Positions 12,637 to 42,325 of a DNA stretch of 42,325 bases are shown here, piece by piece. The DNA lies in assembly GCA_905201305.1 (NCBI GenBank), contig CAJKNS010000001.1, positions 1 through 42,325 of the forward strand, in the 5' to 3' direction. A model generated the notes under the pieces. That model saw nothing but the letters and a program-made list of their open reading frames with translations. It had not been told where the DNA came from and did no database searches. Every line of letters begins with the position of its first letter. Positions within the stretch are counted from its first letter, which is position 1. Source of the stretch: an uncultured Eubacteriales bacterium (GTDB lineage Bacteria; Bacillota; Clostridia; Oscillospirales; Oscillospiraceae). The translations under genes and the position numbers were made by a program.

Positions 12637-14325
12637 TTACCGCGCGTTATAACGATCCAGGGCAGTCTGATAGATGTCGATATACTCCTGAACGCCCATG
12701 GTTTCCATCTGGCTCAGGTACTCATCCCAGGTGCTGATGTCCGCCTGCCCCAGGAGAATCTTATACCAGGTTTCCTGGCTGAGGGTATCCAGATCACTGT
12801 AAATCTGAGACGCACGGCTGCTTTCCGCCGAGGTCAGGGATACATTAGGCATATCGTAGTCTGCATCGCCAACCTGGCTCCAAATCTCCACCGCGGCAAG
12901 GGCATTGTCGTCCAGCAGAGAAACCTCAATTTCCTTGGGGCAAACGCCGGGCTGCTGGGTCAGAGTTACATAGCACTGGCGCGCAATGCCCACAGACAGA
13001 CCGTCAGAGTTATTCAGCAGCATATCCGTCCAATGGGGAACGCCGTTATCGTCATACTCGAAGGTAACGCCTTCGATGCCATAGTTGGACAGCAGGCGAC
13101 CGGGCTCGGAATACCAGAAGTCACACCATGCCATGGCAAGCTCAATGTTGGAGCAGGTTGTGGTAATGGTCATACCCTTGGAGGTATCCAGGGTGATGGT
13201 GGTGATGAAATGGTTCTCGCCTTCTTCATTGGGAAGGATGGGCATTCCCACGTAGGTAACGGTATCCGAGCAGTATGCCTTCAGGTTTGAAGCAGGCGCA
13301 TTGAATACACCCACATCGCCGCCGGTTTTCTTGCCCTCGGTCACAGGGCTCATGGGGTTCTCGTCATAGTTGTAGAAGTCTGCATTCAGGAGTCCCTCAC
13401 TGTACCACTTCGTAATGGTCTCCAAATACGCCTTGAAACCAGCCTCCATGGGACCGTACTTTACCGTTCCATCCACCTGATACAGCTCCGCGGTGGCGTC
13501 AAAAGCGCCCATCAGGAAGCCGCCGGCAGCAAATGCATTATTGCTCATGAACAGCGGATCTGCCAGACCATATTCGGTTTTAAACTTGGTCAGAACATCA
13601 TACAGCGCATCCACCGTTGTTGGGACCTCCAGTACAGCGGCATCCAGCAAATCCCCTCGGATAACGGGACCCTCCAGCAGCGGCACATCAAAGGTTCCAT
13701 TGTAAGAATTCAGGTAATACATCTCCAGAATATTGCCGTCGTCGGTCTTTGCGTCCTTTGCAATGTCCGGGTTCTCATTCAGAATTTTTGCATAGTTGGG
13801 GGCATACTCCAGATAGTTTGCCATATCCACCACAATCTCTTCCTCAAACGCAGAGGTCAGACCGGCAGGATAGTTGGCGGATCGGACCATATCGGGCCAG
13901 TCACCAGAGGCAATCACCAGGGAAAACTGGTCGTTGGCAACCTCCTGCATGACTGCCTGAATGTTCACCTTTACACCGGTGATCTTTTCAGCCTCCACAT
14001 AGATCTGATGGTTGCCCAGCTCTCCGATGTTATCCGTGACGTTGCTGTTTGTAATGGCAAACATAGTAAGCGTCTCGCCGTCGGTGGTCAGCGGCAGCTC
14101 ATAGACTTCCTCTTCGACCGTTTCTTCCGAAGAAGACGCTTCCGGTTCCGAAGAAGCCTCCTGCACCGCTTCTTCGGATACGGCTGGAGCCTGCTCGGAT
14201 GCTGACGCGGTTTCCTGTTTGGCAGGCTCCGGCGCAGAGCTTGCGGCACTGTCTCCATCGGAGCAGCCGCTCAGCAGTCCAAACGCCAACACCAATGCCA
14301 GCAGCATTGCGGTTATCTTTTTCAT
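12637..14325 (-). CDS. extracellular solute-binding lipoprotein, large family-1 (LplA-like) type: SBP-A
   Basis: SD AAGGAGG lies 7 nt upstream. Lipoprotein signal MKKITAMLLALVLAFGLLSGC is followed by an acidic S/A/E/P linker. It shares motifs with the other four SBP copies (ASGDWPDM, YQVDGTVKYGP, C-terminal IYQTALDRYNAR). Confidence 0.85.
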   Translation of the reverse strand: MKKITAMLLALVLAFGLLSGCSDGDSAASSAPEPAKQETASASEQAPAVSEEAVQEASSEPEASSSEETVEEEVYELPLTTDGETLTMFAITNSNVTDNIGELGNHQIYVEAEKITGVKVNIQAVMQEVANDQFSLVIASGDWPDMVRSANYPAGLTSAFEEEIVVDMANYLEYAPNYAKILNENPDIAKDAKTDDGNILEMYYLNSYNGTFDVPLLEGPVIRGDLLDAAVLEVPTTVDALYDVLTKFKTEYGLADPLFMSNNAFAAGGFLMGAFDATAELYQVDGTVKYGPMEAGFKAYLETITKWYSEGLLNADFYNYDENPMSPVTEGKKTGGDVGVFNAPASNLKAYCSDTVTYVGMPILPNEEGENHFITTITLDTSKGMTITTTCSNIELAMAWCDFWYSEPGRLLSNYGIEGVTFEYDDNGVPHWTDMLLNNSDGLSVGIARQCYVTLTQQPGVCPKEIEVSLLDDNALAAVEIWSQVGDADYDMPNVSLTSAESSRASQIYSDLDTLSQETWYKILLGQADISTWDEYLSQMETMGVQEYIDIYQTALDRYNAR

Positions 14326-14343
14326 GATAGATCCTCCTTCTGA

Positions 14344-15183
14344 TTAGGGCTTGTATTTCGATGCGTCGTATCCGTCGCATTCCACTACAATGTAAGAGTT
14401 CTCTTCCTTCCATGTTTCATAGGGCTCCGGAATTTTCGGCTCCGGATAGCTGGGTTCACAGGGCGAATTGGTGCCGGATTTCTGCACCAGCGTCTTTTGC
14501 CCCACATAGGCGATGGTAGGCATAGGCGGTCCGCCGGCAGGCTGGTCGGTCTTTCCGCCCTTGGGCGGCGGCGCCATCATCCCCATGCCCTGGTACTCCA
14601 AGCCGCACTCCATATGGTCCACCCGATGCCAGAGCTTCCACTGACCATCCTCCCGGATGAATTCGGCAGAATAGCGGGACAATCCCAAGGAGGTTTCCGG
14701 CTTTCCGGTTTCCTGATTCAGGTGGGACATATATGCATACGCCATCCATACGCCGCGCGCCGTCTGCCGGTCCTTTGCAATTTCCACATAGGGACTCAGC
14801 AGCATATTCATCACCTTATAGCCGGGACCATATTGCGAATCGAACTTCTCCCCATAAAACTTCTCTGCCACCGCTCTTCCCTGCGCCTTCATGGCAGAGG
14901 TCATGCCGGTGTAATAATTATATACGTTTTCCCGTCCGTAATAAGCCATGGAACCGTGGGCATAGACAATATCGTCCCGCTTGGACCAGTATTTCTCCAG
15001 CTCTTTCTCCTGGAGCTGCCCGTAATAGCCGAACACATGCTTGCCCATGGCGTTCATGATCTGGCGGTAGTCGTCTGCTGCCTCCGCCTGCTGCCGCAGC
15101 GCATTCAGCGCTGCGGATTCTGTTTTTACCGCTGCTTTGGCGGCTTCCAGCGCCGCAGTTACGCGAGACTGTGCATCCGTCAT
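14344..15183 (-). CDS. NTF2/SnoaL-like domain protein with N-terminal helical extension and Pro-rich C-terminal tail (A1)
   Basis: Core motifs are VEIAKDRQTARGVWMAY and FIREDGQWKLWHR, typical of a SnoaL-like cone fold. The tail is PPPKGGKTDQPAGGPPMP...KIPEPYETWKEENSY. The start ATG overlaps the A2 stop (ATGA at 15180-15183), with GGAAGGAGG upstream. The family call is by eye. Confidence 0.75.
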   Translation of the reverse strand: MTDAQSRVTAALEAAKAAVKTESAALNALRQQAEAADDYRQIMNAMGKHVFGYYGQLQEKELEKYWSKRDDIVYAHGSMAYYGRENVYNYYTGMTSAMKAQGRAVAEKFYGEKFDSQYGPGYKVMNMLLSPYVEIAKDRQTARGVWMAYAYMSHLNQETGKPETSLGLSRYSAEFIREDGQWKLWHRVDHMECGLEYQGMGMMAPPPKGGKTDQPAGGPPMPTIAYVGQKTLVQKSGTNSPCEPSYPEPKIPEPYETWKEENSYIVVECDGYDASKYKP

Positions 15184-15992
15184 ACGTCGTCGCCTCCTTC
15201 CGCATATCCGTCCTTGATGATTTGGATATAGGACTGTGCCGGATCCCAGGTGTCATAGGGCTGCGGGATTTTTGGCTCCCGATAGGTGCAGCTATAGGGC
15301 TTGTAGATCATATCTCCCATCTGGGCAATGGTCTTGACCCCTTCCTGAAACAGCGGCACGTTGTTCTCAAAGGGCAGCGTATCCAGCATATTGCAGGGCA
15401 GCATGGAATCCACATAATCTCTTCGGTGCCACATTTTCCAGGTTCCGTTTTCCAGATAGAATTCATCGCCATATTTGGCGAGTCCAAAGCTGGGGGACGC
15501 GCTGCCGTCGGAATCCATCTGGCTCATAAAGGTATGCGCCATCCAGATGCCCTGCGCCGTCTGTCCGTCGCCGGCAATTTCCACCACCGGAGAGCTGATG
15601 ACATTGTGCACCCGATAACCCGGTCCATCCGGCGGGTCCACCTGTAAGCCATAGTTCTTCAGCGCGTTGGCTCTTCCGTTGGCGCACATCTTTTTCGGCG
15701 TCTCAATGTAATACTGATAGGTGGATTCCCGCCCATAGAACGCTTCTCTGCCATGGGCATATACGATGTTGTCCACCGTCTGCGCCCAATACTGGTCCAG
15801 TTCGTCCTTGTGGAGATGCTGGTAGTAGCCCCAGTTGTGGCTTGCCTGGGCATTGACCCCCTGCCGGTAGGCGTCCGCCTGTGCCGCAGCCTTTTCGATT
15901 TCCGCAACCTCCTGGGCAAATCTCTCGTTGGCGGCTTCCAGCTTTTCTGCCTCTGCGGTCCATTCCCGCAGCTTTTCAAGCATATCGCTCAT
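15180..15992 (-). CDS. NTF2/SnoaL-like domain protein (A2), paralog of A1 and A3
   Basis: N-terminal Ala/Glu-rich helix (TAEAEKLEAANERFAQEVAEIEKAAAQADAYRQ). Core VEIAGDGQTAQGIWMAH and FYLENGTWKMWHRRDY. Tail KIPQPYDTWDPAQSY. ATGA overlap with the A3 stop at 15989-15992, with AGGAGGGG 8 nt upstream. Confidence 0.75.
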   Translation of the reverse strand: MSDMLEKLREWTAEAEKLEAANERFAQEVAEIEKAAAQADAYRQGVNAQASHNWGYYQHLHKDELDQYWAQTVDNIVYAHGREAFYGRESTYQYYIETPKKMCANGRANALKNYGLQVDPPDGPGYRVHNVISSPVVEIAGDGQTAQGIWMAHTFMSQMDSDGSASPSFGLAKYGDEFYLENGTWKMWHRRDYVDSMLPCNMLDTLPFENNVPLFQEGVKTIAQMGDMIYKPYSCTYREPKIPQPYDTWDPAQSYIQIIKDGYAEGGDDV

Positions 15993-16900
15993 TCAAACAT
16001 CCCCTCCTTCTGCACATTGGAGGTTTCATAGATCCAGGTGTCATAGGGCTCCGGCAGCTTTGGCGCTCCGATGGGCACCGCTGTGGGGGAATAGCTGCCG
16101 TTTGTCACCTTGATTTTTGTAATCGTCGTGGGTTTGGGGTTTTCCACCATGGGCTTGGGCGGCTTTCCGTCCTTGGTGGGCGGAGGTCCGATCATCGCCG
16201 CGGGGTTCTCCTCAAATACCACGTCTGCGTAATTCCGTCTGTGCCAGATTTTCCACTGACCGTCCTCCAGAATAAATTCTCCGGAATAGCGGGACAGTAC
16301 ACCCTGGGTTTTCAGATTGCCATCCTCACCAATGCAGCCCATAAACGAGTGTGCCATCCAGATGCCCTGGGCGGTCAGACCGTCCTCGGCAATCTCGATA
16401 TATGGCGTTCCAATGAGATTCATGTTTATGTAGCCGGGGGTTTTATCCCCCTCCGGCACCGGCTTTCCCATGGCGCTGAGCTGCTGCCTTGCCTGCTCGC
16501 TGCGCTTTTTTGCCGCTTCCACATAATATCGGCGGACTGCCCGCTGCCCCACATAGGCGAGATCGCCGTTGGCATAGACGATATCCTCCCGTTTCGACCA
16601 GTACTTCTCCAGTTCTTCTTCATAATCCTGGTTCAGGCAGCAATGGACATGTGCCGACATCAGATTCATAATTTCCCGGTAGGCTTCCGCTTTCATGATC
16701 CGTCGTTTTGCCTGCTCCAGCCGCGCTTCCAGCTCCGTGCGGTATTTTCTTGCCGTCTCCAGCCGGCTGACCAGTGCATCACAAGCCTGAGATACCTCCA
16801 CTTCCGGTACCACGTTGATCCCTTCTTTCTGATTGGATGTATCCAGTGTATCAAATTCACGCCTGCCGGAAAAGAAGAAAGCCCTTTGCATTCTTTTCAT
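15989..16900 (-). CDS. NTF2/SnoaL-like domain protein (A3), first gene of operon A
   Basis: The track ORF (15989-17377) is over-extended. ATG at 16900 (MKRMQRAFFFSG...) has GGAG 7 nt upstream. Core IEIAEDGLTAQGIWMAH and FILEDGQWKIWHRRNY. Tail GPPPTKDGKPPKPMVENPKP...KLPEPYDTWIYETS. Confidence 0.7.
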   Translation of the reverse strand: MKRMQRAFFFSGRREFDTLDTSNQKEGINVVPEVEVSQACDALVSRLETARKYRTELEARLEQAKRRIMKAEAYREIMNLMSAHVHCCLNQDYEEELEKYWSKREDIVYANGDLAYVGQRAVRRYYVEAAKKRSEQARQQLSAMGKPVPEGDKTPGYINMNLIGTPYIEIAEDGLTAQGIWMAHSFMGCIGEDGNLKTQGVLSRYSGEFILEDGQWKIWHRRNYADVVFEENPAAMIGPPPTKDGKPPKPMVENPKPTTITKIKVTNGSYSPTAVPIGAPKLPEPYDTWIYETSNVQKEGMFE

Positions 16901-17038: not shown

Positions 17039-18232
17039 ATGGAGCAACCAAACATGTTCCCCGTTACAATCAATGAAGAGCTGTTCCGTATCCTGTTCCC
17101 CAGCGTAAAGGAAGCGGCAAACGCCTCTGACACCAACGCCATCATGGGGCTGCTCACAGATTCCTGCTATGCCCTGCTGCTCTATAAGCCGGTTCCCGGC
17201 AGCACTGCCGACCAAACCGCCCGTCAGGAGGACGCGTTCCGCGCCTTTCTTCAGGAGACACACCGGATCTGCTGCTTCCGTTTTCACGGACATAATATGG
17301 GACTGATCTCCTTTTCCACTTGGGATTGGGACAGGGTCCAGGCACAGACGGTTCAAATTGAGCGCTCCATCAGCCAATATCTACATACTGCGCTGGAGCA
17401 AACCGGCGTTGAGCTCAACATGTCCATCGGGCGTCCCTTTATGGGACTGTTAAACCTCCGCGAGGCATATTCCGAGCTCATCAACTCCACCATGACCTTT
17501 GCCCTGCGTCCGCAAAATCTTGTGGTGTCGGAGTATGACATCGTCAGCGATCCGGCGCTTATGGTGGACCCATATCCCCGCTCTGAAATTGAGCTTCAAT
17601 TGGCAGATGCAATCATTAAGCTGGAAATCGGGAAAGCGGAAAGCCTGATGGAGAACATCATTCAGCACGAAATGTCCACCCTGCACCTGAAGCTTTCGTT
17701 TCTTCCCCGCATGGCGATCCGGATTGAATGGATGCTGATTGTGCTGCATGTGCCGCGGAACTCCGGAGACGTCAGCAGCGCCGAAATCTACAGCTACCCC
17801 CAGCGCATCAAATATGCCGAAAGTCTCCAGGAGGGGATTGCGCTGATTCACGCCTGCTTTCAAAAGCTGGACGATTACTATAATGCCTTCCGCTTCAACG
17901 TTGGAAAAGACATCTCTCAAATCACGGATTATATTCATACCCAAGCCAGCAATCCCAATCTCAGCGCAACCATGATCTGTGACCGCTTCCGAATCAGCCC
18001 GTCCTACCTGTCCCATATGTTTAAGCGCCGCACGGGAATCAAGCTGGTTGATTATATCCACAAAGCACGTATCAGCCAGGCAAAGCAGCTGCTGGAAACT
18101 ACCACCGATACCATTGCGGAAATCAGCCGGCAGGTGGGCTATACCAGCAGCGCCAGCTTTTCCACCACCTTTAAGCGCTATGAAGCCATCACGCCAAGAG
18201 AATACCGGGATCGATTCCGGATGAATCATTGA
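17039..18232 (+). CDS. AraC family transcriptional regulator (about 290-aa N-terminal domain plus C-terminal double HTH)
   Basis: The track ORF 15881-18232 is over-extended across the antisense of the NTF2 genes. ATG at 17039 (MEQPNMFPVTINEE...) has GAGG 7 nt upstream. The C-terminus ICDRFRISPSYLSHMFKRRTGIKLVDYIHKARISQAKQLLETTTDTIAEISRQVGYTSSASFSTTFKRYEAITPREYR is canonical AraC HTH. Confidence 0.85.
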   Translation: MEQPNMFPVTINEELFRILFPSVKEAANASDTNAIMGLLTDSCYALLLYKPVPGSTADQTARQEDAFRAFLQETHRICCFRFHGHNMGLISFSTWDWDRVQAQTVQIERSISQYLHTALEQTGVELNMSIGRPFMGLLNLREAYSELINSTMTFALRPQNLVVSEYDIVSDPALMVDPYPRSEIELQLADAIIKLEIGKAESLMENIIQHEMSTLHLKLSFLPRMAIRIEWMLIVLHVPRNSGDVSSAEIYSYPQRIKYAESLQEGIALIHACFQKLDDYYNAFRFNVGKDISQITDYIHTQASNPNLSATMICDRFRISPSYLSHMFKRRTGIKLVDYIHKARISQAKQLLETTTDTIAEISRQVGYTSSASFSTTFKRYEAITPREYRDRFRMNH

Positions 18233-18260: not shown

Positions 18261-19202
18261 ATGGATATTCAGCAGCTTCGATACTTTACCGTCCTTGCAA
18301 CCACCGGAAACTTCACCCGGGCATCGACAGAATTGCACCTTACCCAGCCGGCATTGAGCAAATCCATCTCCGCCATGGAAGCGGAGCTGGGGCTGGAACT
18401 GCTTGCACGGACAAAAAAAGGCGCCACGCTGACCGAGTGCGGGAAGGAATTCTGCCGGTTTGCCCAAAGCGTTCTAACGGAATATGACCACACCTGCCAG
18501 CGCATGATGGAAATTCGCGAAAATCGCAAAAACGCCGTAAACCTTACCGTCACGCTGCCGGAAATCTTTGTTCAGATTCTGGAGGGCTTTCATCATCGGC
18601 ATCCCGACATTCAGGTGCGGCTTCCCGCCAGCAGTACTATTTCCGCGCAGGAAATGCTTGCATTGGGCAGCCTGGATTTTGTGGTAAACACTGCGCCCAT
18701 GAAGGACGAACGCATAGAATGCCAGCCGCTGATGCAGGACGAATACCTGTTGATGGTGCCGGAGGACATGCCGTTTACCACCGGTCAGGCAATTGACCTC
18801 AGCATGTTCCGGGAAGAGCCATTTATCATGCCGCAAAGCGAATCCGAAAGCAGGCGGCAGATGGAGTTTTTCTGCAGTCTGGCAGGCTTCACCCCCAACA
18901 TTGCCTTTGAAGTAACCGAAAACGAAATGACCAGGAAGCTGGTGCAGTTTGGCTACGGCGTTGCATTTATCCCGGGAGTTTCTGCGGTAAATACCATTGA
19001 AATTCCCCCGGAAAGCGAAGGACTTGGAAAGGTCAGCGTCAAATTTCTGCGGATTCGCAACCCCATTTGCTATCGCACCATTGGAATCAACCGGATTAAA
19101 AACCAAAAGCTCTCCACCAGCGCAGACTTGCTGCTGAACTACTTTATTGACTTCTTTCAAACCGCACAGCAGCGGTCCGATCGCGTGTTTCCCCCTCTTT
19201 GA
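18261..19202 (+). CDS. LysR family transcriptional regulator
   Basis: N-terminal wHTH MDIQQLRYFTVLATTGNFTRASTELHLTQPALSKSISAMEAELGLELLARTKKGATLTECG. AGGAG lies 9 nt upstream. Confidence 0.9.
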   Translation: MDIQQLRYFTVLATTGNFTRASTELHLTQPALSKSISAMEAELGLELLARTKKGATLTECGKEFCRFAQSVLTEYDHTCQRMMEIRENRKNAVNLTVTLPEIFVQILEGFHHRHPDIQVRLPASSTISAQEMLALGSLDFVVNTAPMKDERIECQPLMQDEYLLMVPEDMPFTTGQAIDLSMFREEPFIMPQSESESRRQMEFFCSLAGFTPNIAFEVTENEMTRKLVQFGYGVAFIPGVSAVNTIEIPPESEGLGKVSVKFLRIRNPICYRTIGINRIKNQKLSTSADLLLNYFIDFFQTAQQRSDRVFPPL

Positions 19203-21090: not shown

Positions 21091-21828
21091 ATGACACTGG
21101 AAGAACAGCTGAAAGAATTACGATTGGCGCAGGCGAGAACCCAGGCATATATTGACTGCTGCAATGTAATCGGAAAATATGTATGCTATCACGCTGCCGA
21201 CGAGCAGGAAAAGATCGCTTCCCTGTTTGCCACAAAGACCGAGGGCTGCCGCATTGAGATGATGTCCGGCGTGTTTGAGGGTGACGATGGCATTGAAGCA
21301 TTTTTCCACTCCCATCCCAACGCAGACGACGACGCCAACCGGAAGGGCTTCCTGCACATCCATATGCTCACCACCCCCATTGTGGAGGTTGCAGCCGACG
21401 GCGAGTCTGTCATGGGCTCCTGGTATTCCCCCGGCGTGGAGAGCAACACCTTTGGCGGAACCCTCAACGGCTTCTGGGCTTGGATGAAGTATGGCGCGAT
21501 TTTCAAGAAAGAGGACGGTCAGTGGAAAATCTGGCATCTGCATACCTACAGCATTTTCATGTGCCCCTATGACAAGTGCTGGACCGAGGTAGAGCCCTAT
21601 GGCCTTAAGAAGGAAATTCCGCCGGAGATGCTGGAAATGATGAAGAAGGAAATGGACGAAAAGGGAATGAAGGGTCCCGGAGGTCCCGGCGGCTTTGGCG
21701 GCGGTCCGATGTACACGCCTAAGCCTGCTACCACCTGGTGGGGCTTCTCCAAGGACTCCATGTACCCCGGCGACCAGCCCACACCTCCTACGCCCTACGA
21801 CACGCTGCCTGATACAGTAGAGATCTAA
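21091..21828 (+). CDS. NTF2/SnoaL-like domain protein (B1)
   Basis: AAGGAGG lies 8 nt upstream. Core VEVAADGESVMGSWYSP and IFKKEDGQWKIWHLHTY. Gly/Pro tail KGPGGPGGFGGGPMYTPKP...PTPPTPYDTLPDT. Confidence 0.7.
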   Translation: MTLEEQLKELRLAQARTQAYIDCCNVIGKYVCYHAADEQEKIASLFATKTEGCRIEMMSGVFEGDDGIEAFFHSHPNADDDANRKGFLHIHMLTTPIVEVAADGESVMGSWYSPGVESNTFGGTLNGFWAWMKYGAIFKKEDGQWKIWHLHTYSIFMCPYDKCWTEVEPYGLKKEIPPEMLEMMKKEMDEKGMKGPGGPGGFGGGPMYTPKPATTWWGFSKDSMYPGDQPTPPTPYDTLPDTVEI

Positions 21829-21980: not shown

Positions 21981-22742
21981 ATGGAAATGCTGAAAGACAA
22001 GGTTGCGCTGATTACCGGCGGAAGCTCCGGCATCGGTGCGGAAACCGCCCGGGTATTTGCAAAGCATGGCGCCAAGGTTGCGATCTTTGCCCGGGGACAG
22101 GAGAAAATGGACCGGGTTGCCGCTGAATTAAAGGCACTGGGCGCAGCTTGTCTGACCATTGCCGGAGATGTTACAAAGTCAGAGGATTGCAGCGCTGCGG
22201 TGGAGCAGGTGGTAGCGGTCTTTGGGCGCATTGATGTGTTGGTCAATAACGCAGGGGCAGGCGATTTTCACACCACCACCGAAAAGTGCAGCGATGCATT
22301 CTGGGATCAAATGATCGCCCTGAATCAGTCCTCGGTGCTGTATTGCTGTCGGGCTGCACTGCCCCATATGCGCGCCCAGGGCAGCGGTTCCATTGTCAAT
22401 CTCTCTGCCATTGCAGGGGTTTACGGCAATGCCGGCGTCAGCTATTCCGCGGCAAAGGCAGCGGTCATTGCCATGACAAAAAATATTGCGCTCCAGTATA
22501 CGGGCACCGATATTCGCTGCAACGCCGTCTGCCCCGGTCCCACCGCCGTAGATCGTATGGATGGGAGAGAGGACGCCTTTATGGATTTGGATTTCTTTGC
22601 CATTACAGACCGGCATATGGATTCCTCCATTCCCTTTGCAGCTGCGGAGGATCAAGCCAATGTCATTGCGTTCCTCGCCAGCGATCTGTCCCGCTGCATC
22701 ACCGGTCAAGCCATTGTCACGGATAACGGGCGCTGCCTGTAA
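21981..22742 (+). CDS. SDR family (short-chain dehydrogenase/reductase) oxidoreductase
   Basis: AGGAGGG SD. Cofactor motif TGGSSGIGAE, NNAG, and catalytic S...YSAAK. Confidence 0.9.
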   Translation: MEMLKDKVALITGGSSGIGAETARVFAKHGAKVAIFARGQEKMDRVAAELKALGAACLTIAGDVTKSEDCSAAVEQVVAVFGRIDVLVNNAGAGDFHTTTEKCSDAFWDQMIALNQSSVLYCCRAALPHMRAQGSGSIVNLSAIAGVYGNAGVSYSAAKAAVIAMTKNIALQYTGTDIRCNAVCPGPTAVDRMDGREDAFMDLDFFAITDRHMDSSIPFAAAEDQANVIAFLASDLSRCITGQAIVTDNGRCL

Positions 22743-22759: not shown

Positions 22760-23542
22760 ATGTATCCTGTTCAGATTCCCACCTTTGATTGTGCCGGAAA
22801 AACTGCGGTCATCACCGGCGCCGGAAGCGGCATCGGTCAGGTTGCCGCCATGCTGTTCGCTGCCTACGGCGCCAATGTGGTGGCTGCGGACATTTCTGAA
22901 GCTGCTGCCGAGAAAACTGCCCAGGTCATAAGAAGAAACGGCGGGCGGGTCCACGTAATTCCGGTGGACATTGCCCAAAGCCCGCAGGTGGACCGGCTGA
23001 TTGCCGAGACAGTGGACCGTTTTGGCGGCGTGGATATTTTCGTTGCCAATGCGGGCATCGGCGGTGCGGTCCTCCCGCTGCTGGAGCAGACGGAGGAGGA
23101 ATTTATGAATGTTGTCTCCGTCAATCTCAAGGGTACGTTTCTCTGTGCCAAAGCAGCGGCAAAGCAAATGATTCACCAGGGGCGCGGCGGACGCATTGTC
23201 ATCACCGCATCCATCGGCGCATTTGAAGGCGGCGGGCATCACGGTCCCTATGGCGCTTCCAAGGGCGCATTGGTCACGCTGGTTCGTACCATGGGCAGAG
23301 AATGGGCAGAATACGGCATCACCGTCAACGCCGTTTGCCCGGGTCTTACCGCAACCGCCATCAATCAGGGACTGCTGGAGGACAAGGCTCTTGCGGAAGC
23401 CCTGCTGGACAAAATCCCCATGCACCGGATGGCGCAGCCGGAGGAAATTGCCTCTGCCATGCTGTATCTGGCAACCGATGCCGCCGCATTTATCACCGGA
23501 ACCACATTGATCGTAGACGGCGGCGCGACCACCGGAGGATGA
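22760..23542 (+). CDS. SDR family oxidoreductase (second copy)
   Basis: GAAGGAGG SD. TGAGSGIG, ANAG, catalytic YGASK, and C-terminal LIVDGG typical of classical SDRs. Confidence 0.9.
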   Translation: MYPVQIPTFDCAGKTAVITGAGSGIGQVAAMLFAAYGANVVAADISEAAAEKTAQVIRRNGGRVHVIPVDIAQSPQVDRLIAETVDRFGGVDIFVANAGIGGAVLPLLEQTEEEFMNVVSVNLKGTFLCAKAAAKQMIHQGRGGRIVITASIGAFEGGGHHGPYGASKGALVTLVRTMGREWAEYGITVNAVCPGLTATAINQGLLEDKALAEALLDKIPMHRMAQPEEIASAMLYLATDAAAFITGTTLIVDGGATTGG

Positions 23543-31664: not shown

Positions 31665-31744
31665 GAGAATTACAAGAATTACGCAGAAAAATGAGACGAA
31701 TTCACAGTTTTCATGCAACTGGAGTTGGAAAGGACACCGTCACC

Positions 31745-34034: not shown

Positions 34035-34688
34035 ATGGCAAAGCGACTGTATTTTAGCGATCTTGCCCGTGAGCTTGGAATTGCCGGCAGAGAAATGCCG
34101 CCCATGGGTGGTCCACCTCCGGCGCCTGCTTTGGGAAATCATCCCATGACCCATCCCAATGTATGGCGAAAGGAAGGCGGTGAAAAGCTGCTTTCTTATC
34201 TCAAGGCACATTATCACGCCGGAGATGAGCTGGAATATGACGGTCATGCGGACTGCTGGCTGATGCTTGCAATGATGGACCAGATGCGGGACTGCAAGCT
34301 CTCCACTTACATTGGCGCAGGCTTTGACCGCAGCTTACCCATTGAGGCATACCGGCTGGGTCCCGAACCGGCGCCCAATCAGCCCTGTACCTTCACGGTG
34401 GTGGAGCAGGGGGAGAATATCCAGCTTACCGTGCACCTCACCCCCGACGGCACCCCATTCGATCTGCCCTTCCGGGAGATTGTTGCGCCCCAGCTGCCAA
34501 CAGGGAAAAACATTTTTGTCCGGCTGGAGGGACGGCATTTGCTGTTTACGTTCCCGATTTCCCTGACCTACGGAACAACCTGCCGGAGTATTGTGATGGA
34601 TTATGACCAGGAGTGCTTTGTCTCCGTTTCCAATGCTCCGGAGCTTCAGGTGGGAGACTGCATTCCAAATCCCTTTGCGACCGCTTAA
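34035..34688 (+). CDS. hypothetical protein (217 aa), first gene of operon D
   Basis: GAAGG lies 7 nt upstream of ATG 34035 (MAKRLYFSDLARELGIAGREMPPMGGPPPAPALGNHPMTHP...). The track start 33981 lies upstream of the candidate -10. There is no signal peptide, no TM segment and no recognisable family. Confidence 0.6.
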   Translation: MAKRLYFSDLARELGIAGREMPPMGGPPPAPALGNHPMTHPNVWRKEGGEKLLSYLKAHYHAGDELEYDGHADCWLMLAMMDQMRDCKLSTYIGAGFDRSLPIEAYRLGPEPAPNQPCTFTVVEQGENIQLTVHLTPDGTPFDLPFREIVAPQLPTGKNIFVRLEGRHLLFTFPISLTYGTTCRSIVMDYDQECFVSVSNAPELQVGDCIPNPFATA

Positions 34689-36499: not shown

Positions 36500-37246
36500 A
36501 TGCTGACAAAAAACACCCTTACCCCGGAATTGCAGATTGAGCGCTGGGAGGACCGAAGGGATATCAAGAACCTGATGGGTCGCTATGCCTATGATCTGCT
36601 CATTAAAAACGAAAAGAACATCTATGCTGCCCATTGGTCCACCAGACCGGACGTCTGCCTGATGTACCCTTGGGGCACCTATCGCGGCGCAGCGGCAGTC
36701 CGGGATTTCTATGCCGCGCTGGACCGTTATAATGCCGAGCGCGCCCGCTGGTATCAGGAGATGATGCCGGAAAAGACCAAGGGACTCTCTCAGGAGGAGC
36801 TTTACGGCATCGGCTCCTACCATGGTATGCACCTGACGACCCCCTGTATCATCGTTGCCGACGACGGAGAAACTGCCCAGGCAATTTACTGGTGTCACGA
36901 TGTCTATGACGTGATGTGCGAGGCGGGGAACACCGGAAAGTGGGATATCGGGCTGCTGTTTTTAGACCTTGTCTATGAGGACGGCAGTTGGAAGCTCTGG
37001 CATATGCGCTGCGCCTTTGAGGTCAGCGGTCCCCACGGTCAGCCCTTTGGCACGGAATTTACCCTGCCCGGTGAGCCCATTTCCTATCTGGTGGAGGAGC
37101 TGAACAAGGCAAAGGAATGGTTCCCCCAGCCCAATGATCCCACCCCCTCTCACATCATGTATCAAAAGGGGAGAACCGCGCCCCAGTATCCCCCCTGCCC
37201 GAAGCCCTATGCCACCTGGCAGGACAGCCAAAGCTATGGCGTATAA
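36500..37246 (+). CDS. NTF2/SnoaL-like domain protein (D1)
   Basis: N-terminal helix WEDRRDIKNLMGRYAYDLL. Core IIVADDGETAQAIYWCH and LVYEDGSWKLWHMRCAF. Tail ..YPPCPKPYATWQDSQSYGV. Confidence 0.75.
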   Translation: MLTKNTLTPELQIERWEDRRDIKNLMGRYAYDLLIKNEKNIYAAHWSTRPDVCLMYPWGTYRGAAAVRDFYAALDRYNAERARWYQEMMPEKTKGLSQEELYGIGSYHGMHLTTPCIIVADDGETAQAIYWCHDVYDVMCEAGNTGKWDIGLLFLDLVYEDGSWKLWHMRCAFEVSGPHGQPFGTEFTLPGEPISYLVEELNKAKEWFPQPNDPTPSHIMYQKGRTAPQYPPCPKPYATWQDSQSYGV

Positions 37247-37258: not shown

Positions 37259-37996
37259 ATGAACGCAAAATATCCATTCCCCGCTTATATCGAATGCTGC
37301 CCCTATGAGCCGCTGCTGCCGGACTATACTCCGGAGGAGCAGCTGGATGCCGTGCTGGCGAAGGACGAGGTTATGAACCTCATGGGACTGCGAAACTATT
37401 ATTATCTTGCAAATGATCTGCCCGGTCTGCTGGAGCAGCTTTGGGTGCAGGAACCGGAGAACAGAAAGACAGCCTCCCTGGGCTCCAACTTTGGCTTTTA
37501 CATTGGCTGGGAGGAAATCCAGCGGTATGTCCGGGAGCGTTCCCAGCGCATTTTGGTGGGCAGTCAGTGCCAGTCGGTAAATACCCCCATGATTCACGTG
37601 GCATTTGACCGAAAAACCGCCCGTGGGCTTTGGTATTCCGACGGCTATATCACCGATCTTCAGGGCAATACCGATGTGATCGCCCAGAAGGTAGCGGTGG
37701 ACTTCATTCGAGAAGGCGACCAGTGGAAGATCTGGCACCTCACCTATGGTGCAGACCTGGTGGATGCACTCCATAGCGATCCCATAGAAGGCGACTATGG
37801 CATGCTGGGGCAGCTGAAAACGTGGTTTGGAACCCCCACCGTTGCCTGCATCACCCATGATCCCAAGTACAACTGGAACGACAATTATCCGGCGGAGCCC
37901 GAGCCCTATGAGAGCTTCCGTTCCACCGAGAGCTATGGTCCCGAGGGATGCCCCCGGTACCGGCAGCACATGCGGGAGGTGAAGCACCATGCGTAA
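37259..37996 (+). CDS. NTF2/SnoaL-like domain protein (D2)
   Basis: AAGGAGG lies 7 nt upstream. Core IHVAFDRKTARGLWYSD and DFIREGDQWKIWHLTYG. Tail YPAEPEPYESFRSTESYGPEG. Confidence 0.7.
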   Translation: MNAKYPFPAYIECCPYEPLLPDYTPEEQLDAVLAKDEVMNLMGLRNYYYLANDLPGLLEQLWVQEPENRKTASLGSNFGFYIGWEEIQRYVRERSQRILVGSQCQSVNTPMIHVAFDRKTARGLWYSDGYITDLQGNTDVIAQKVAVDFIREGDQWKIWHLTYGADLVDALHSDPIEGDYGMLGQLKTWFGTPTVACITHDPKYNWNDNYPAEPEPYESFRSTESYGPEGCPRYRQHMREVKHHA

Positions 37997-38816
37997 ATCC
38001 CATCTGAGCTTTGAACAGCGGGTTCACAATGCCTATGGCAGCCAGGAGGTGGAGAACGTCCGGGCAAGCCATGCCTTTGGTCATGCCCGCAACCTTTCCA
38101 CCCGGGAATGGGGCAATATCTGGGCAACCTGCCCGGATACCGCCTGGGCGCACAGCTTTGGGCGAAATCGGGGCTTTGAGGCAATTTGGCGCATCTGCGT
38201 AGCCAACTATGACGTCAAGGGCTGCATCAACTATCTAAAGCTCTTCGATGATAACTCCGATGCGCTGGGCTTTGATATGCGTTCGATGATGATGGTAGCC
38301 ATGCATTGCCTGTCCACCGAATGCGTAGAAATGGCGGACGATGGAAAAACCGCCCGTGCCTGGCATCTGACCCCCGGCGGCTGCTTCAACCACATGGGAC
38401 CGAAAATGCCCGGACCTCAGGGGGATCAGCCCCGTCCGGAGCGAATTTCCGGCGGCTATGAGCGCTATGGCTCCGACTATGTGTTTGAGGACGGGCGCTG
38501 GAAGCTGCTGCATGAGCACATATCCCCGGATCTCCACGGCACGTTCTGGCATGGCGATTTCTTCTATCAGGGCTTCCATGATGCCGTCACCGGAAAGGAG
38601 CGCGGACCCATGATGCCGCCTCCCGGGAACAGCAAATACGATGCCATTGTGCCGGATGTCTTCCCGGATATGCAGGAGCTCAAGGACAACCACTATGACT
38701 ACAGTGCCCTTCAGCCGGTGCAGCCATCCTGCCGTCCGCCGGAGCCTTACGAAACCTTCGATGAAAACAATACCTATGCGCCGATCATTGATCCGGAGTA
38801 TTTCCGGAGCCTGTAA
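37989..38816 (+). CDS. NTF2/SnoaL-like domain protein (D3), most divergent copy
   Basis: 8-nt overlap with D2, with GGGAGGTG upstream. Core VEMADDGKTARAWHLTP and YVFEDGRWKLLHEHISP. Tail CRPPEPYETFDENNTYAPI. Confidence 0.65.
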   Translation: MRKSHLSFEQRVHNAYGSQEVENVRASHAFGHARNLSTREWGNIWATCPDTAWAHSFGRNRGFEAIWRICVANYDVKGCINYLKLFDDNSDALGFDMRSMMMVAMHCLSTECVEMADDGKTARAWHLTPGGCFNHMGPKMPGPQGDQPRPERISGGYERYGSDYVFEDGRWKLLHEHISPDLHGTFWHGDFFYQGFHDAVTGKERGPMMPPPGNSKYDAIVPDVFPDMQELKDNHYDYSALQPVQPSCRPPEPYETFDENNTYAPIIDPEYFRSL

Positions 38817-38947: not shown

Positions 38948-39397
38948 TTATTTGGCTTTTCCGTAAGACGTTGTGTAGGTTCCGGAATCACCGCCGGAGC
39001 TATTGGACGCCTTAAAGGTGATAATTGCATAGTACTTGGCACCGCTGGTTGCGCCGGTATAGGTTACGGAGCTCGAAAAGGAATATCGGTTGCTTCCCAT
39101 CATACCGGTTGTGCTTGTTGAATAAAATGTCTTTACGCAGGTTCCGCTGGAATTATAGATTTGAATTTTGGAGGCACCCAGGCTTGTCATTTTTCCCGTT
39201 GCAGTAATATTAAACTGCACCTTGAGTGAGCCTGTCGTGCTTCCCGCTTCCACATATGCGGAGTAGGAACTGATGTAATTGCTTGCATGTGGTGAGATTC
39301 CGCCATTGGAGTCTTCGGCAAATACGGGTGCGATTGTTGTACACAGAATTAAAATAGAAAGAAATAGCGCTGTAATATGAAATAGCTTCCGTTTCAT
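38948..39397 (-). CDS. small secreted Ser/Thr/Gly-rich protein (149 aa), function unknown
   Basis: AAGGAGG lies 7 nt upstream. Signal peptide MKRKLFHITALFLSILILCTTIAPVFAED. The mature part is beta-strand-like (KVQFNITATGKMT, KYYAIITFKASNSS). Confidence 0.7.
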   Translation of the reverse strand: MKRKLFHITALFLSILILCTTIAPVFAEDSNGGISPHASNYISSYSAYVEAGSTTGSLKVQFNITATGKMTSLGASKIQIYNSSGTCVKTFYSTSTTGMMGSNRYSFSSSVTYTGATSGAKYYAIITFKASNSSGGDSGTYTTSYGKAK

Positions 39398-39610: not shown

Positions 39611-40788
39611 ATGGATACGGTGTTTTGGATTGCACTTCTGGTGATCGTGGTACTGGGATGTATCGGGGGTTGGATGCTGGTTCGGCAGATGCGGCGGCAG
39701 AGCGCTTTGCTGCGCCGACTGTGGGAGCAGAGCTTTGTGCTGCGGCTGCTGGAGGATCAGTCCCCGGAGTATGCCATGGATCAGCAGTACATCAGGGATA
39801 TTCAAAAGCAATTACGGTGCAACGCTGTGGCTGCCCAGCACCGGTGTTCCCAACGGCAACTACCTCAGCGCAGGCTATGGCGTGGCGAACTATTGCGGCA
39901 GCACCACAGCGCAGCAGCCCTTCTATCAGGTGGATGGTACCGTGAAGTATGGACCACTGGAGGATGAGACGCTGGACTTCCTGACTATGATGCATCAGTG
40001 GTACACCGAGGGACTGATCTATCCGGACTTCATCAACAATATGGCGCCCCTTTGCAACGGATGCCAGTGTCATTGCCGACGGCTCCGTGGGCATCTGGTA
40101 TGATGTGACAGGTCTGCTGGCGATGCACCAGTCCGTGGGTGAGGCAGCTGATCCAAATTTCAACCTCATGCCCATTCCTGACGCCAAGAAGAGCGAGGAT
40201 GAGACGAACCATCTTAGAATCAGCAACGATCTGGTGGACGGCAACGGCATCTGCATTTCCGTGGATTGCAAGGACACGGAAGCGGCAGCCAAGTGGATGG
40301 ACTATCTCTACACCGACGATGGTCGGACGCTGCGAACCTGGGGTCTGGAGGGACTGACCTTTGAATACGGTGAGGATGGCACCCCGCATTATATGGATCT
40401 GATTGTAAACAATCCGGACGGACTGTCTGAAGCACAGGCGCGTTCCCTGTATATCTATACAGGTATCCCCGGTATTACCAGCTGGAAGGCGTCTACCAGC
40501 GGCTATACCGAGGCGCAGAACCGCAGCATCGACGTATGGCTGACCTCTGATGCCGACTACAACTATCCCGCCAACGTGAAGTTCAATGATGCCGCAGGAG
40601 AAAGCGCTGAGCTGGGCACCCTATACAGCGACATCAAGACCTATGTGCAGACCTCTCTGGTGCAGTTCATTGTAGGAGAAAAGCCCCTCAGCGAATTTGA
40701 TGCGTTCCATCAGGAGTGCTATGATATGGGGATCGAGGATTGCCTGAAGATTTATCAGGACGCCCTGGACCGCTATCAGGAACGCTGA
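39611..40788 (+). pseudogene. decayed solute-binding protein gene SBP-E (internal deletion plus two +1 frameshifts)
   Basis: ATG 39611 gives a hydrophobic N-terminus with a lipobox-like VLGC. Frame 2 ..SFVLRLLEDQSPEYAMDQQYIRD matches paralogs at about residue 210-240. Skipping base 39800 continues FKSNYGATLW...YQVDGTVKYGPLED...LIYPDFINNMAP. Skipping one C of the CCCC run at 40047-40050 continues FATDASVIADGSVGIWYDV... to the conserved C-terminus KIYQDALDRYQER (stop at 40788). About 180 N-terminal-lobe residues are missing. Confidence 0.65.
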
Positions 40789-40888: not shown

Positions 40889-40925
40889 CCCACTGGCTGT
40901 GTCGTGCTGCCAGTGGGCATTTCTT
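40889..40925 (+). terminator. stem-loop downstream of SBP-E
   Basis: CCCACTGGC (40889-40897) pairs with GCCAGTGGG (40909-40917), followed by CATTTCTTG. Confidence 0.45.
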
Positions 40926-41112
40926 GTCGCTAAAGTGCCAAGAAGGGCTTCCATATCCGGTACAAGCCTTTTTTTGCTATGCGCTGGTTCTGTCCGCGAA
41001 AGACAATAGAATACCTCCGTCATTCAAAGAAAATGCGAATTGCAGCAGATTTTCTGACATGCTATGATGAAATTATAACAGGAAAGTATGATAAGGAAAG
41101 GAGTGACGCTGC

Positions 41113-42325
41113 ATGGAGGAACAGCAGCTCAGGGAAGAGCTCCAGCGCATTCTGCCCCCCTTTGAGGAGTCGATCTATTCCGACTGTCTGGACAATCAGG
41201 ATGTGTTCGGCAGAGTACAGCGGCTCATTGACAATGCAAGCCGTCTCCCCAAAGCCTATGTGCTCCAGCGTATGGGGCAGTTCACCTCCCCCCTGTGCGC
41301 GGTAGCAGTGGTGCGGGTAGAGGATCGCTCTCAGCACCGATATGACAAGCTCCATCGTGCGCTGTCCGAGGGGACCTCCGGGGATTATCTCCGCAAACGT
41401 CTGCTGGAAACCATGAATGACCTGTCCCAGGTGCTGTTTGTACATAAAAATGGCGATCTGGTTATGATGATCGACTACTGCGGCAGCAGCCGGAGCGATG
41501 GCTTGATGGAGGAAACCGGACGGCGGCTGACCCATATGGTCATGACAACGGAAGCGCAGACAGACATGCCCCTGCGGATTACCCTAAGTCAGGTGTTTGA
41601 CGGTCTGGAGCAGCTGCCCCGTGCCTATGAGCAGGCGTGCCGACTCCAGGATTATACCATGCTGTTTTCTGAGGAGACACAGGTGTTTACCATGGGCGAC
41701 TTTCTCAGCAGCCGCCATCGGGTGCTCAACACCGTTCCGCCGGAGGAGGTGCTGGGACGCTATCTGTCGCTGCTGGTATCCGGGGATTATGACGGTGCCT
41801 GCGAGCTGATGCTGATGATGGTCACGAACTATGCCATGGTAGATCTATATCATCCTGCTACCATTCGGCAGTATACCGATCAGCTTTTGATGCTGGCAAG
41901 TGCGGTGTGCCATCCACCGCGGGTGGAGATTTTGCCTCATCGGCAGCAGCTGGAGGACATTGAGACAATTCAAAGCGATATTATCGAATACTTTACCCGG
42001 CTGGTTCAGACCCAGGAGCACGAGGAGCCGACCATGGCGGATCGTCTGGCGGAGTATATCCAGCAGCACTATGCGGACAGCAGCCTTGATGTCTCGGCAC
42101 TGAGTCGGGCGTTTTCTATCAACCTCTCCTATATGTCCAGAATTTTTAAGCGGGATATGGGTGTGTCGCCGCTGATGTACCTGCAATCTGTTCGGGTCCG
42201 TGCGGCAAAGGAGCTGCTGCTGGACCCCAGGCTGAAAATCGGCGAGATCGGAGAACAGGTGGGCTACGCGGACACGGCGCATTTTGCCAGAACCTTCAAA
42301 AAGCAGGAGGGCATGAGCGCCAACG
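41113..42325 (+). CDS. AraC family transcriptional regulator, 3' end beyond the window; paralog-like architecture to 17039-18232
   Basis: This gene is not in the ORF track because there is no stop in the window. AAGGAAAGGAG lies 9 nt upstream of ATG 41113 (MEEQQLREELQRILPPFEESIYSD...). The C-terminal part ..LAEYIQQHYADSSLDVSALSRAFSINLSYMSRIFKRDMGVSPLMYLQSVRVRAAKELLLDPRLKIGEIGEQVGYADTAHFARTFKKQEGMSAN is AraC HTH. Confidence 0.8.
   Translation, partial: MEEQQLREELQRILPPFEESIYSDCLDNQDVFGRVQRLIDNASRLPKAYVLQRMGQFTSPLCAVAVVRVEDRSQHRYDKLHRALSEGTSGDYLRKRLLETMNDLSQVLFVHKNGDLVMMIDYCGSSRSDGLMEETGRRLTHMVMTTEAQTDMPLRITLSQVFDGLEQLPRAYEQACRLQDYTMLFSEETQVFTMGDFLSSRHRVLNTVPPEEVLGRYLSLLVSGDYDGACELMLMMVTNYAMVDLYHPATIRQYTDQLLMLASAVCHPPRVEILPHRQQLEDIETIQSDIIEYFTRLVQTQEHEEPTMADRLAEYIQQHYADSSLDVSALSRAFSINLSYMSRIFKRDMGVSPLMYLQSVRVRAAKELLLDPRLKIGEIGEQVGYADTAHFARTFKKQEGMSAN

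Follow-up and report, generated by a model that had tools for sequence, protein, structure and literature searches.

The described systems closest to the locus reported here are, on the enzyme side, two proteins of the NTF2 fold and, on the uptake side, solute-binding proteins (SBPs) encoded away from the membrane components of their transporters. BaiE, the bile-acid 7-alpha-dehydratase of the Clostridium scindens bai operon, has a Tyr-Asp-His active site, and the bai set also includes a short-chain dehydrogenase/reductase (SDR; BaiA-like), flavoenzymes that combine old yellow enzyme (OYE) and Pyr_redox_2 domains (BaiCD/H-like) and FAD_binding_2 enzymes (BaiJ/P-like). Orphan SBPs are often found near catabolic genes and LysR regulators, and multiple OppA paralogues also share translocators. 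Examples of such orphans are MppA, which works with OppBCDF in E. coli (PMC3173086), and the TctC-type 'Bug' receptors of Bordetella (PMC11452294). LdpA (LsdE), the diarylpropane lyase of Novosphingobium aromaticivorans and Sphingobium sp. SYK-6 (PDB 8abt, 8abu, 8abv, 8abw), is a homotrimer in which a C-terminal arm wraps the neighbouring subunit and holds the trimer together; its chemistry involves a His-Asp dyad and, for coordination of the C-alpha hydroxyl, a Glu-Tyr-Gln triad (Motif II) (PMC9942872). Here we analyse a stretch of 42,325 nucleotides, the whole of which we call the window, from contig CAJKNS010000001.1 (assembly GCA_905201305.1) of an uncultured Eubacteriales bacterium of the Oscillospiraceae from the human gut, in which genes for large lipoprotein SBPs directly adjoin genes for a family of proteins that we denote long NTF2. 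We assign a probability of roughly 55% to the reading that these genes form inducible capture-and-convert cassettes, in which a regulator would induce the operon, the SBP would capture the substrate and use a shared CUT1 translocator encoded elsewhere, a long-NTF2 trimer would convert the substrate, and SDR or flavin-dependent partners would finish the conversion.

Genes of the window were taken from an open reading frame (ORF) listing and assigned to families by Pfam scans. Three complete cassettes (A, B and D) and two decayed SBP genes (C and E) make up the region (Table 1). An earlier sequence-only reading had described five iterated modules; five SBP-homologous segments, with a mutual identity of ~27-31%, are indeed recovered by tblastn and alignment, but only A, B and D are complete, C being truncated and E fragmented. 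Module C consists of a LysR gene, a FAD_binding_2 enzyme and the truncated SBP, and module E of the wreck of an SBP gene and an AraC gene. The NTF2 triplet of module A lies upstream of SBP-A, the single NTF2 gene of module B downstream of SBP-B and the triplet of module D downstream of SBP-D. Both gene orders and the gaps between SBP and NTF2 genes reported earlier (18, 35 and 53 nt in A, B and D, respectively) agree with the ORF coordinates. Neighbouring NTF2 genes within the arrays overlap by 4, 4 and 8 nt. The lipoboxes of the SBPs (LLSGC, VFSGC, MFAGC and MLSAC) and the motifs they share (ASGD[WY]PD, YQVDG.V.Y and ..YQ.A.DRY) are visible in the sequences and in the paralogue alignment, as the same reading had noted.

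The window SBPs are family-1 extracellular binding proteins with a lipoprotein signal, as expected of CUT1 systems of the LplABC/AlgQ type; the two BPD_transp_1 permease genes that are encoded with the SBP in such systems are missing from the window. Pfam SBP_bac_1 or SBP_bac_8 scores above the cut-off in three of the window's SBPs, and a profile built from them retrieves AlgQ1/AlgQ2, Smon0123 and FusA from the PDB at E values of 1e-54 to 1e-37. Pfam scans detected neither a CUT1-type permease nor an importer ATPase anywhere in the window, in line with the earlier reading; all they show is an ABC-2 exporter pair and an exporter remnant, and true membrane proteins are limited to the ABC-2 permease (30205-31095) and the ABC_membrane remnant (31538-32671).

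The seven NTF2 proteins of the window are 245-279 aa long, about 100 aa more than the classic proteins of the SnoaL or ketosteroid isomerase type (~130-160 aa). Their earlier description as small NTF2/SnoaL proteins thus holds for the fold, which resembles that of LdpA and BaiE, and fails for the size. Six of the seven match SnoaL_4 (PF13577) at 26.5-48.1 bits, against a gathering cut-off of 24; N-D3, at 15.3 bits, belongs to the family through the family profile and its orthologues, and tblastn found no further NTF2 remnants in the window. All share an architecture in which the SnoaL_4 core is followed by a conserved C-terminal arm ending in P-x-P-[EK]-P-Y-x-T-[WF]-x4-S-Y, along with a family-specific invariant His in the motif WK[IL]WH and conserved pocket-lining residues. 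When the profile of the long-NTF2 family was compared with the PDB, LdpA came first (E 4e-17), followed by BaiE (5e-6). The AlphaFold2 (AF2) model of N-B1, the single NTF2 protein of module B, has a pLDDT of 84.7, rising to ~94 in the C-terminal P-x-P-Y block, and a Foldseek search with this model again returned LdpA at the top (TM-score ~0.6, E 6e-13, ~180 residues), followed by BaiE, a putative scytalone dehydratase, Rv3472 (of unknown function) and LinA, with gallate decarboxylase in 32nd place. The model has the alpha+beta cone of the NTF2 fold (Foldseek probability 1.0 to LdpA, BaiE, LinA and scytalone dehydratase), and the window proteins display the LdpA layout of an NTF2 core plus extended C-terminal arm within ~250 aa.

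The build is LdpA-like, and the catalytic columns are not conserved. In the column of LdpA His97, N-B1 and N-D3 have His, the A paralogues all have Asn, N-D1 has Met and N-D2 has Gln, and the Glu-Tyr-Gln triad (columns of Glu143, Tyr165 and Gln170) is not kept in the seven window proteins, except for Tyr165 in N-D2. Orthology to LdpA or BaiE was considered and rejected because the defining catalytic residues are missing. The A triplet, in which N-A1 is 41% identical to N-A2 and 39% to N-A3, is a younger triplication, with similarity visible even in the DNA; given that every copy carries the His-to-Asn variant, it may use a different chemistry. NCBIfam contains no model that matches the long NTF2 proteins. 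Among 1.84 billion representatives of 50%-identity clusters, the family numbers 2,181 proteins at E <= 1e-3, 1,221 at E <= 1e-10 and 479 at E <= 1e-30. Judged by their sequences, the long NTF2 proteins are a distinct, uncharacterised, arm-bearing subfamily.

Neighbourhoods were compared across the window and ~20-kb flanks of its relatives. A scan centred on NTF2, using the motif E[DN]GxWK[IL]WH and one genome per GTDB species, yielded 464 relatives, of which 77 loci were analysed; the counts of arrays, neighbours and adjacencies around long-NTF2 genes all come from these 77 loci. A second scan, centred on the SBPs, covered metagenome contigs and binned SBPs by their bit score to the window's SBP profile. 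In the first scan, an LplA-type SBP adjoins a long NTF2 in 17 of ~70 non-redundant loci from other species, again in both gene orders and mostly in Oscillospiraceae, plus a Flexilinea. In the second, none of the 10 evaluable SBPs scoring at least 400 bits has an adjacent permease, compared to 31 of the 41 evaluable SBPs at 200-400 bits (Fisher p = 1e-5), and NTF2 adjacency follows the opposite trend, 7 of 10 versus 3 of 41 (Fisher p = 1e-4). The 88 loci L001-L088 are all free of CUT1 permeases, and evaluable orthologous loci contain no permease within about 8-10 kb. The adjacency noted from the sequence alone is thus not a local rearrangement, and the absence of cognate permeases extends to the orthologous loci. 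In a relative from Paenibacillus, the SBP gene is accompanied by a pair of BPD_transp_1 permease genes and an AraC gene, which is the canonical layout.

The orthologous loci retain much of the cassette structure. L003 contains a LysR gene, a gene for a 230-aa protein, the SBP and three NTF2 genes, and the module-B orthologue L004 (ENA ERZ27241817, k141_69265) consists of LysR, SBP, NTF2, a second SBP and FAD_binding_2. The L004 cassette sits among genes of a conjugative element (relaxase, ArdA, NikA/MobC-like and TTRAP), and therefore the cassettes may be horizontally mobile. In four further loci (L089-L092), a FAD_binding_2 enzyme precedes an orphan SBP, a pairing like that of module C; among them is a member of the orphan clade whose only partner is the FAD_binding_2 enzyme. 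Intact orthologues of the window SBPs are kept in many species at 30-80% identity, and those of SBP-B in gut metagenomes reach 72-99%. In five loci from other Oscillospiraceae (L065, L069, L073, L075 and L079), the NTF2 triplet is followed by an apparently orphan SBP_bac_5 (Opp-type) lipoprotein, with no permease nearby and with a BaiCD-like OYE enzyme and beta-helix proteins flanking its gene, which suggests that two unrelated families of orphan receptors serve one type of cassette. L070, L073 and L081 are labelled Bacteroidaceae; in genes and gene order they hardly differ from Oscillospiraceae loci (for example, L065 and L062), and they may be mis-binned. A CUT2 transporter in L066/L067 was considered as the missing partner and rejected, being on the opposite strand and absent from the other loci; it is accompanied by an unannotated 368-aa gene, putatively its own binding protein. 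Recent tandem duplication was likewise rejected as the origin of the modules, the A triplet being the one exception, since the modules share no long DNA repeats and their proteins are only 20-30% identical. The modules of the window, which the sequence-only reading took for a duplicating family, thus are old, diverged family members; orthologues are present in other genomes, in one case within a conjugative element.

Beyond the Oscillospiraceae, long-NTF2 genes adjoin other kinds of uptake genes. Their neighbours encode TonB-dependent receptors in Hymenobacter (L006/L086) and in Acidobacteria-like loci, an OprB porin in Brenneria (L005/L020), S-layer homology (SLH)-domain proteins in a diderm Firmicute and complete Opp-type ATP-binding cassette (ABC) systems (SBP_bac_5, BPD_transp_1 and ATPase genes) in Actinobacteria; other carriers beside them are tripartite ATP-independent periplasmic (TRAP) systems of the DctP(QM) type and GntP-like carriers. 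The commonest neighbour of all is LysR (28 genes in 24 loci). Recurrent redox neighbours are BaiCD/H-like OYE + Pyr_redox_2 ene-reductases (10 loci), FAD_binding_2 enzymes (7 loci) and SDRs; lactonases and BD-FAE (feruloyl/acetyl-xylan-type) esterases recur as well, as do FAD_binding_4, a glyoxalase-type dioxygenase and FAA hydrolase in aerobes. Judging from these neighbourhoods, the long-NTF2 genes are the conserved cross-phylum core, and the uptake part varies with the organism. This lends partial support to the 'capture and convert' idea, which the sequence-only reading had proposed.

The predicted location of the proteins changes along with the uptake route. N-terminal hydrophobic, signal-like segments, several with lipoboxes, are present in 17 of 23 diderm homologues versus 0 of 144 monoderm ones (0/112 Firmicutes-like and 0/32 actinobacterial; p = 1e-18), so that long NTF2 works in the periplasm of the former and in the cytoplasm of the latter, that is, in the first compartment that a substrate reaches past a specific uptake step. 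No other comparative result supports 'capture and convert' as strongly as this compartment switching. By implication, the substrate must cross the membrane in the organism studied here, so that the SBP would need a translocator. Diderm homologues with a signal peptide or lipobox are found right after OprB, TonB receptor or SLH genes (L005/L020, L006/L086, L009-L011, L007/L008, L048 and L051). In Desulfobacterales, the FAD_binding_2 enzymes that neighbour long NTF2 carry twin-arginine translocation (Tat) signals, so that all enzymes of the set seem to be located in the periplasm there. A secreted NTF2 that acts outside the cell together with the SBP was rejected for monoderms, where none of the 144 homologues has an N-terminal hydrophobic segment.

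Arrays of long-NTF2 genes are common: there are 67 solo genes, 15 pairs, 20 triplets, 1 quadruplet and 2 sextets. The best cross-locus match of a triplet member lies at the equal array position in 48 of 60 cases, and the D1-D2-D3 order is kept in 4 triplets and 2 sextets. The LdpA-His column is occupied by His in 57 of 64 solo genes (89%, with Tyr kept in ~80%) versus 31 of 60 triplet members (p = 4e-6). By triplet position, His is found in 6, 15 and 10 of 20 genes at positions 1, 2 and 3, respectively, and only 2 of 20 triplets keep it in all three. Natural fusions also exist; two-domain proteins of 450-530 aa occur at least twelve times among the top 150 library matches (e.g. P0268-P0278), and the protein library also contains three-domain fusions of 650-690 aa (P0287, P0298, P0338 and P0408). 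The three inspected, P0298, P0338 and P0408, have motifs like those of LdpA as well as signals of the Tat or lipoprotein type. Considering the triplets, the fusions, the loss of His, the trimeric state of LdpA and the 4-8 nt overlaps together, a heterotrimer with some non-catalytic subunits seems the most economical arrangement. The A and D paralogues, which are translationally coupled, would thus most likely assemble as heterotrimers, with His in only some of the subunits.

The capture-and-convert reading can be spelled out as follows. A LysR- or AraC-type regulator would sense the substrate or its product and induce the operon. The lipoprotein SBP would act as the receptor that determines specificity and would dock onto a shared ABC translocator of the CUT1 type encoded elsewhere; the SBPs belong to a distinct clade within the LplA/AlgQ-type CUT1 proteins that has lost the linkage to its own permease genes. 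In the cytoplasm, a homo- or heterotrimer of long NTF2 would, given its LdpA-like build, perform a cofactor-less elimination, an isomerisation/dehydratase step or a lyase step, and the SDRs or the fumarate-reductase-like FAD enzyme would complete the conversion, a role that BaiCD-like OYE enzymes might fill in sister loci. We favour diet-derived plant phenolics (of the lignan, neolignan, stilbene, flavonoid or hydroxycinnamate type) as the candidate substrates because phenolic, quinone-methide-forming or cyclic hydrophobic compounds are the substrates of most of the nearest relatives in structure; given the family of the SBPs, the phenolics might be imported as glycosides. Steroids or bile acids are a potential alternative, since the partner enzyme classes mirror the bai pathway.

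More tentatively, and in our estimate rather improbably, the separate strands might be drawn into one joint reading. Under it, long NTF2 proteins would be unrecognised, obligately hetero-oligomeric (pseudo-trimeric), cofactor-less enzymes in which one or two subunits carry the catalytic His and the others provide specificity or scaffolding; in gut Oscillospiraceae, they would be connected to an extensive network of orphan SBP_bac_1 and SBP_bac_5 receptors that use a few shared translocators, for the modular, horizontally exchangeable import and conversion of dietary phenolics or steroids. If true, this would give uncultured gut bacteria a system to import and transform many dietary phenolics or steroids.

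Several observations weigh against catalysis by long NTF2, against the inferred oligomer or against the inferred transport. The dyad Asp (column of Asp40) is absent from all seven window proteins, which have Ala, Tyr or Leu in its place, and among the family's tabulated residues this column is never Asp, but usually Thr, Ser or Ala. With Asn at the His position in all three A-module paralogues as well, the chemistry may differ from that of LdpA and BaiE, or some members may be non-catalytic. The positional orthology within triplets reflects, in part, plain operon inheritance among related species; the two-domain fusions map poorly onto a trimer, and the 3x fusions fall in a more LdpA-like branch than the window proteins. 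On the uptake side, no permease or ATPase partner was identified within the window and the ~20-kb flanks of its relatives. Characterised large SBPs of the AlgQ/LplA type bind oligosaccharides, and an aglycone phenolic or a steroid would be an unusual ligand for them, although glycosides are possible.

Some of these observations would fit a view in which long NTF2 proteins are non-catalytic carriers or chaperones of hydrophobic ligands and the SBPs are still uptake receptors; the carriers would be periplasmic shuttles under TonB receptors or porins in diderms and cytoplasmic acceptors that feed redox enzymes in monoderms. The consistent adjacency of long NTF2 to an uptake component, the export of diderm homologues, several of them lipoproteins, the family-wide absence of the dyad Asp and the loss of His from many array members, including all three A paralogues, point in this direction, and many NTF2-fold proteins are non-catalytic binders. 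We nevertheless consider such a role unlikely because the solo members show the pattern of a constrained active site in their high retention of His and Tyr, the invariant WK[IL]WH His and the pocket-lining residues are conserved, and the nearest relatives in sequence and structure are mostly enzymes. A still less probable alternative concerns the SBPs, which might be surface sensors that signal to a membrane partner, ligand traps that concentrate the substrate, or copies in the process of being lost, rather than feeders of an ABC importer. The lack of a nearby permease in orthologous loci and the pseudogene state of two of the five window copies are compatible with this possibility, and SBP-dependent signalling is known (PMC11113362). 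However, the LysR and AraC proteins encoded next to the SBPs are soluble and have neither sensor-kinase nor membrane domains, so that an external signal would have no obvious route inward; a substrate of the cytoplasmic NTF2 enzymes of monoderms has to enter the cell; and the wide retention of intact SBP orthologues and the linkage of the long-NTF2 family to complete importers elsewhere argue for uptake.

That the SBP and NTF2 genes are functionally unrelated and were brought together by an accidental rearrangement of ordinary sugar ABC loci we regard as very improbable. The SBPs do belong to a sugar-type (CUT1) family, and the region contains decayed genes and an inserted TetR/ABC-2 cassette; yet, the adjacency is found in many species, in both gene orders and with gaps of only tens of nucleotides, is enriched in the orphan clade of SBPs and includes a B-type module that is intact on a conjugative element.

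Table 1. Principal features of the 42,325-nt window
Feature	Position	Strand	Evidence
Cytoplasmic beta-helix protein, 840 aa	431..2953	+	BLASTP E 6e-30 to the L069 beta-helix neighbour
SBP-A, intact CUT1/LplA-AlgQ-type lipoprotein, 562 aa, last gene of operon A	12637..14325	-	SBP_bac_8 E 9e-10; lipobox LLSGC; PDB profile AlgQ1/2, Smon0123
N-A1, long NTF2, 279 aa, third gene of A triplet	14344..15183	-	SnoaL_4 E 1e-8; His97 column = Asn
N-A2, long NTF2, 270 aa, second gene of A triplet, 4-nt overlap with both neighbours	15180..15992	-	SnoaL_4 E 3e-7
N-A3, long NTF2, 274 aa, first gene of operon A	15989..16813	-	SnoaL_4 E 2e-9
AraC-family regulator, 397 aa, divergent from operon A	17039..18232	+	HTH_18 E 2e-21
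LysR-type regulator of module B	18261..19202	+	HTH_1 + LysR_substrate
SBP-B, intact solute-binding lipoprotein, 577 aa	19322..21055	+	Paralogue alignment, tblastn
N-B1, solo long NTF2, 245 aa, keeps Tyr and His of the LdpA/BaiE-type site	21091..21828	+	SnoaL_4 E 1e-12
SDR 1, module B	21981..22742	+	adh_short E 1e-57
SDR 2, module B	22760..23542	+	adh_short_C2 E 2e-66
LysR-type regulator, divergent from module C	23661..24650	-	Pfam
FAD_binding_2 flavoenzyme, cytoplasmic, soluble fumarate/urocanate-reductase-like, no signal peptide	24773..26314	+	Pfam; PDB 1d4d, 6t85
SBP-C, truncated paralogue, 488 aa, without roughly the last 100 aa	26413..27879	+	tblastn covers query residues 1-473 only; alignment
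LysR-type regulator, divergent from operon D; arrangement also in L003	32974..33882	-	Pfam
Conserved 217-aa protein, function unknown, first gene of operon D	34035..34688 (alternative start 33981, 235 aa)	+	Found in L003 and L084
SBP-D, intact solute-binding lipoprotein, 581 aa	34701..36446	+	SBP_bac_1 E 4e-8; orthologous locus L003
N-D1, long NTF2, 248 aa, D triplet position 1, His column = Met	36500..37246	+	SnoaL_4 E 2e-6
N-D2, long NTF2, 245 aa, D triplet position 2, His column = Gln	37259..37996	+	SnoaL_4 E 7e-6
N-D3, long NTF2, 275 aa, D triplet position 3, sole D subunit with His	37989..38816	+	SnoaL_4 E 0.02, below cut-off; in family by profile
SBP-E, decayed paralogue, two frames (39801-40070 and 40168-40785), ~250 N-terminal aa gone	39801..40785	+	tblastn, ORFs
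AraC-family regulator beside SBP-E remnant, runs off the window	41113..42325	+	C-terminal AraC-type helix-turn-helix-like sequence in translation only

Each module has its own regulator, as read earlier from the sequence: the five regulators of the window are adjacent to, or divergent from, structural genes, four of them being assigned by Pfam and the AraC protein beside SBP-E by its helix-turn-helix-like sequence. The start codon of N-A3 is most likely the GTG at 16813, which is preceded by the ribosome-binding site GAAGGGA (start-codon scan). A scan for promoters and terminators returned counts near the shuffled expectation and gives weak support for operon boundaries, and an Rfam search of the window found neither a riboswitch nor any other RNA. 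In the GTDB-species scan, the closest genome match of the window is CAKSWT01, an uncultured Oscillospiraceae metagenome-assembled genome from a Hadza gut sample, at 99% identity.

Sequence searches of Pfam, NCBIfam and the PDB gave no match for the 217-aa protein of operon D, and among 5.8 billion proteins it has just 27 close homologues. The invariant motifs of the protein are D-G-H-x-D-C-W and G-R-H, and its AF2 model (pLDDT 85.6) has the Csx3/Crn3 ring nuclease as the best, marginal match, with SAVED/CARF-like receptors weaker; the gene lies between the LysR gene and SBP-D, within a metabolic operon. The beta-helix protein at the left end of the window belongs to a cluster of neighbours found beside long-NTF2 genes in 9 loci, among them NTF2 triplets of other Oscillospiraceae, and from this gene content the island probably extends upstream to the beta-helix gene region. 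In this part of the window (431-6243, + strand), the beta-helix gene is followed by genes for an unknown protein of 227 aa, for an esterase of the S9/AXE type and for an amidohydrolase. Between these upstream enzymes and module A stands the gene for a giant 1973-aa surface protein (6557-12478, + strand), with BspA-type leucine-rich repeats (LRR_5, E 1e-183), a CARDB domain and C-terminal SLH domains. Right after SBP-C (27954-32671, + strand) follow a TetR gene, the ABC-2 exporter ATPase (29294-30208) and permease, and the decayed ABC_membrane gene; this cassette may mark an insertion that cut SBP-C short. Between the D triplet and the SBP-E remnant (38948-39397, - strand) lies the gene for a small protein of 149 aa, which has a clear signal peptide and matches no family.

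SnoaL_4/NTF2 enzymes, CUT1 SBPs, operons controlled by LysR-type or AraC regulators and translocator-sharing orphan SBPs are already known in kind. New, as far as we found, are the long-NTF2 family, its cross-phylum coupling to uptake with compartment switching, the tandem triplets and fusions with decaying catalytic residues, and a permease-less clade of LplA/AlgQ-type SBPs dedicated to the cassettes. Literature searches on NTF2 heterotrimers, on SnoaL in gut gene clusters and on SnoaL_4/PF13577 found no description of the family or of the architecture, which agrees with the view, taken from the sequence alone, that no such system had been described; orphan SBPs as such, however, are not new. 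The Oscillospiraceae are abundant in the gut and mostly uncultured, and their metabolism of xenobiotics and polyphenols is poorly mapped. The present analysis defines a compact uncharacterised enzyme family with LdpA and BaiE as structural templates, and its linkage to uptake genes can be used as a signature to mine for substrate-specific transformation cassettes, with an SBP and a regulator in each cassette as direct experimental handles on the ligands. The triplets, whose catalytic residues are decaying, and the 2x and 3x fusions found in nature jointly make a testable case for heteromeric NTF2 enzymes, of which, to our knowledge, none have been described. If translocators are shared as proposed, the cassettes would also extend the 'many receptors, few translocators' logic of Opp, MppA and Bug to large CUT1-type lipoproteins of Gram-positive bacteria.

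Compared with LplABC and AlgQ-AlgM1M2SS, the window SBPs agree in sequence, fold class, lipoprotein anchor and the frequent presence of an AraC-type regulator nearby, whereas the window and the orthologous loci are devoid of the BPD_transp_1 pair and of the ATPase. With MppA, OppA and the Bug receptors, they share the location of SBP genes away from membrane components and the presence of many paralogues per genome. They differ from MppA and Bug in being large LplA/AlgQ-type CUT1 lipoproteins of a Gram-positive organism, from a family normally encoded with two permeases, for which sharing is proposed here, and in that sister loci place an orphan SBP_bac_5 at the same position.

BaiE (PDB 4l8o, 4l8p, 4leh) is a SnoaL_4 member and the second-best structural match, and the partner classes of the bai operon (SDR, OYE + Pyr_redox_2 and FAD_binding_2) recur in the window cassettes and sister loci. 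However, BaiE, at ~165-190 aa, lacks the C-terminal arm and is ~100 aa shorter than long NTF2, in which the Asp of the BaiE site is missing; furthermore, Pfam scans of the window show no CoA ligase (BaiB), CoA transferase (BaiF) or BaiG-type carrier. LdpA remains the best match of long NTF2 in both profile and structure; it is likewise a protein of ~250 aa with an NTF2 cone and a C-terminal arm, needs no cofactor and has equivalents of its Tyr35 and His97 in most solo long-NTF2 members. Identity to LdpA is only ~20%, the dyad Asp and the Glu-Tyr-Gln triad are absent, and the long NTF2 proteins have their own invariant WK[IL]WH His and P-x-P-Y-x-T-[FW] tail. Finally, LdpA is a homotrimer made from one gene that is linked to lignostilbene dioxygenases, whereas the long-NTF2 genes often form diverged triplets and are linked to genes for uptake.

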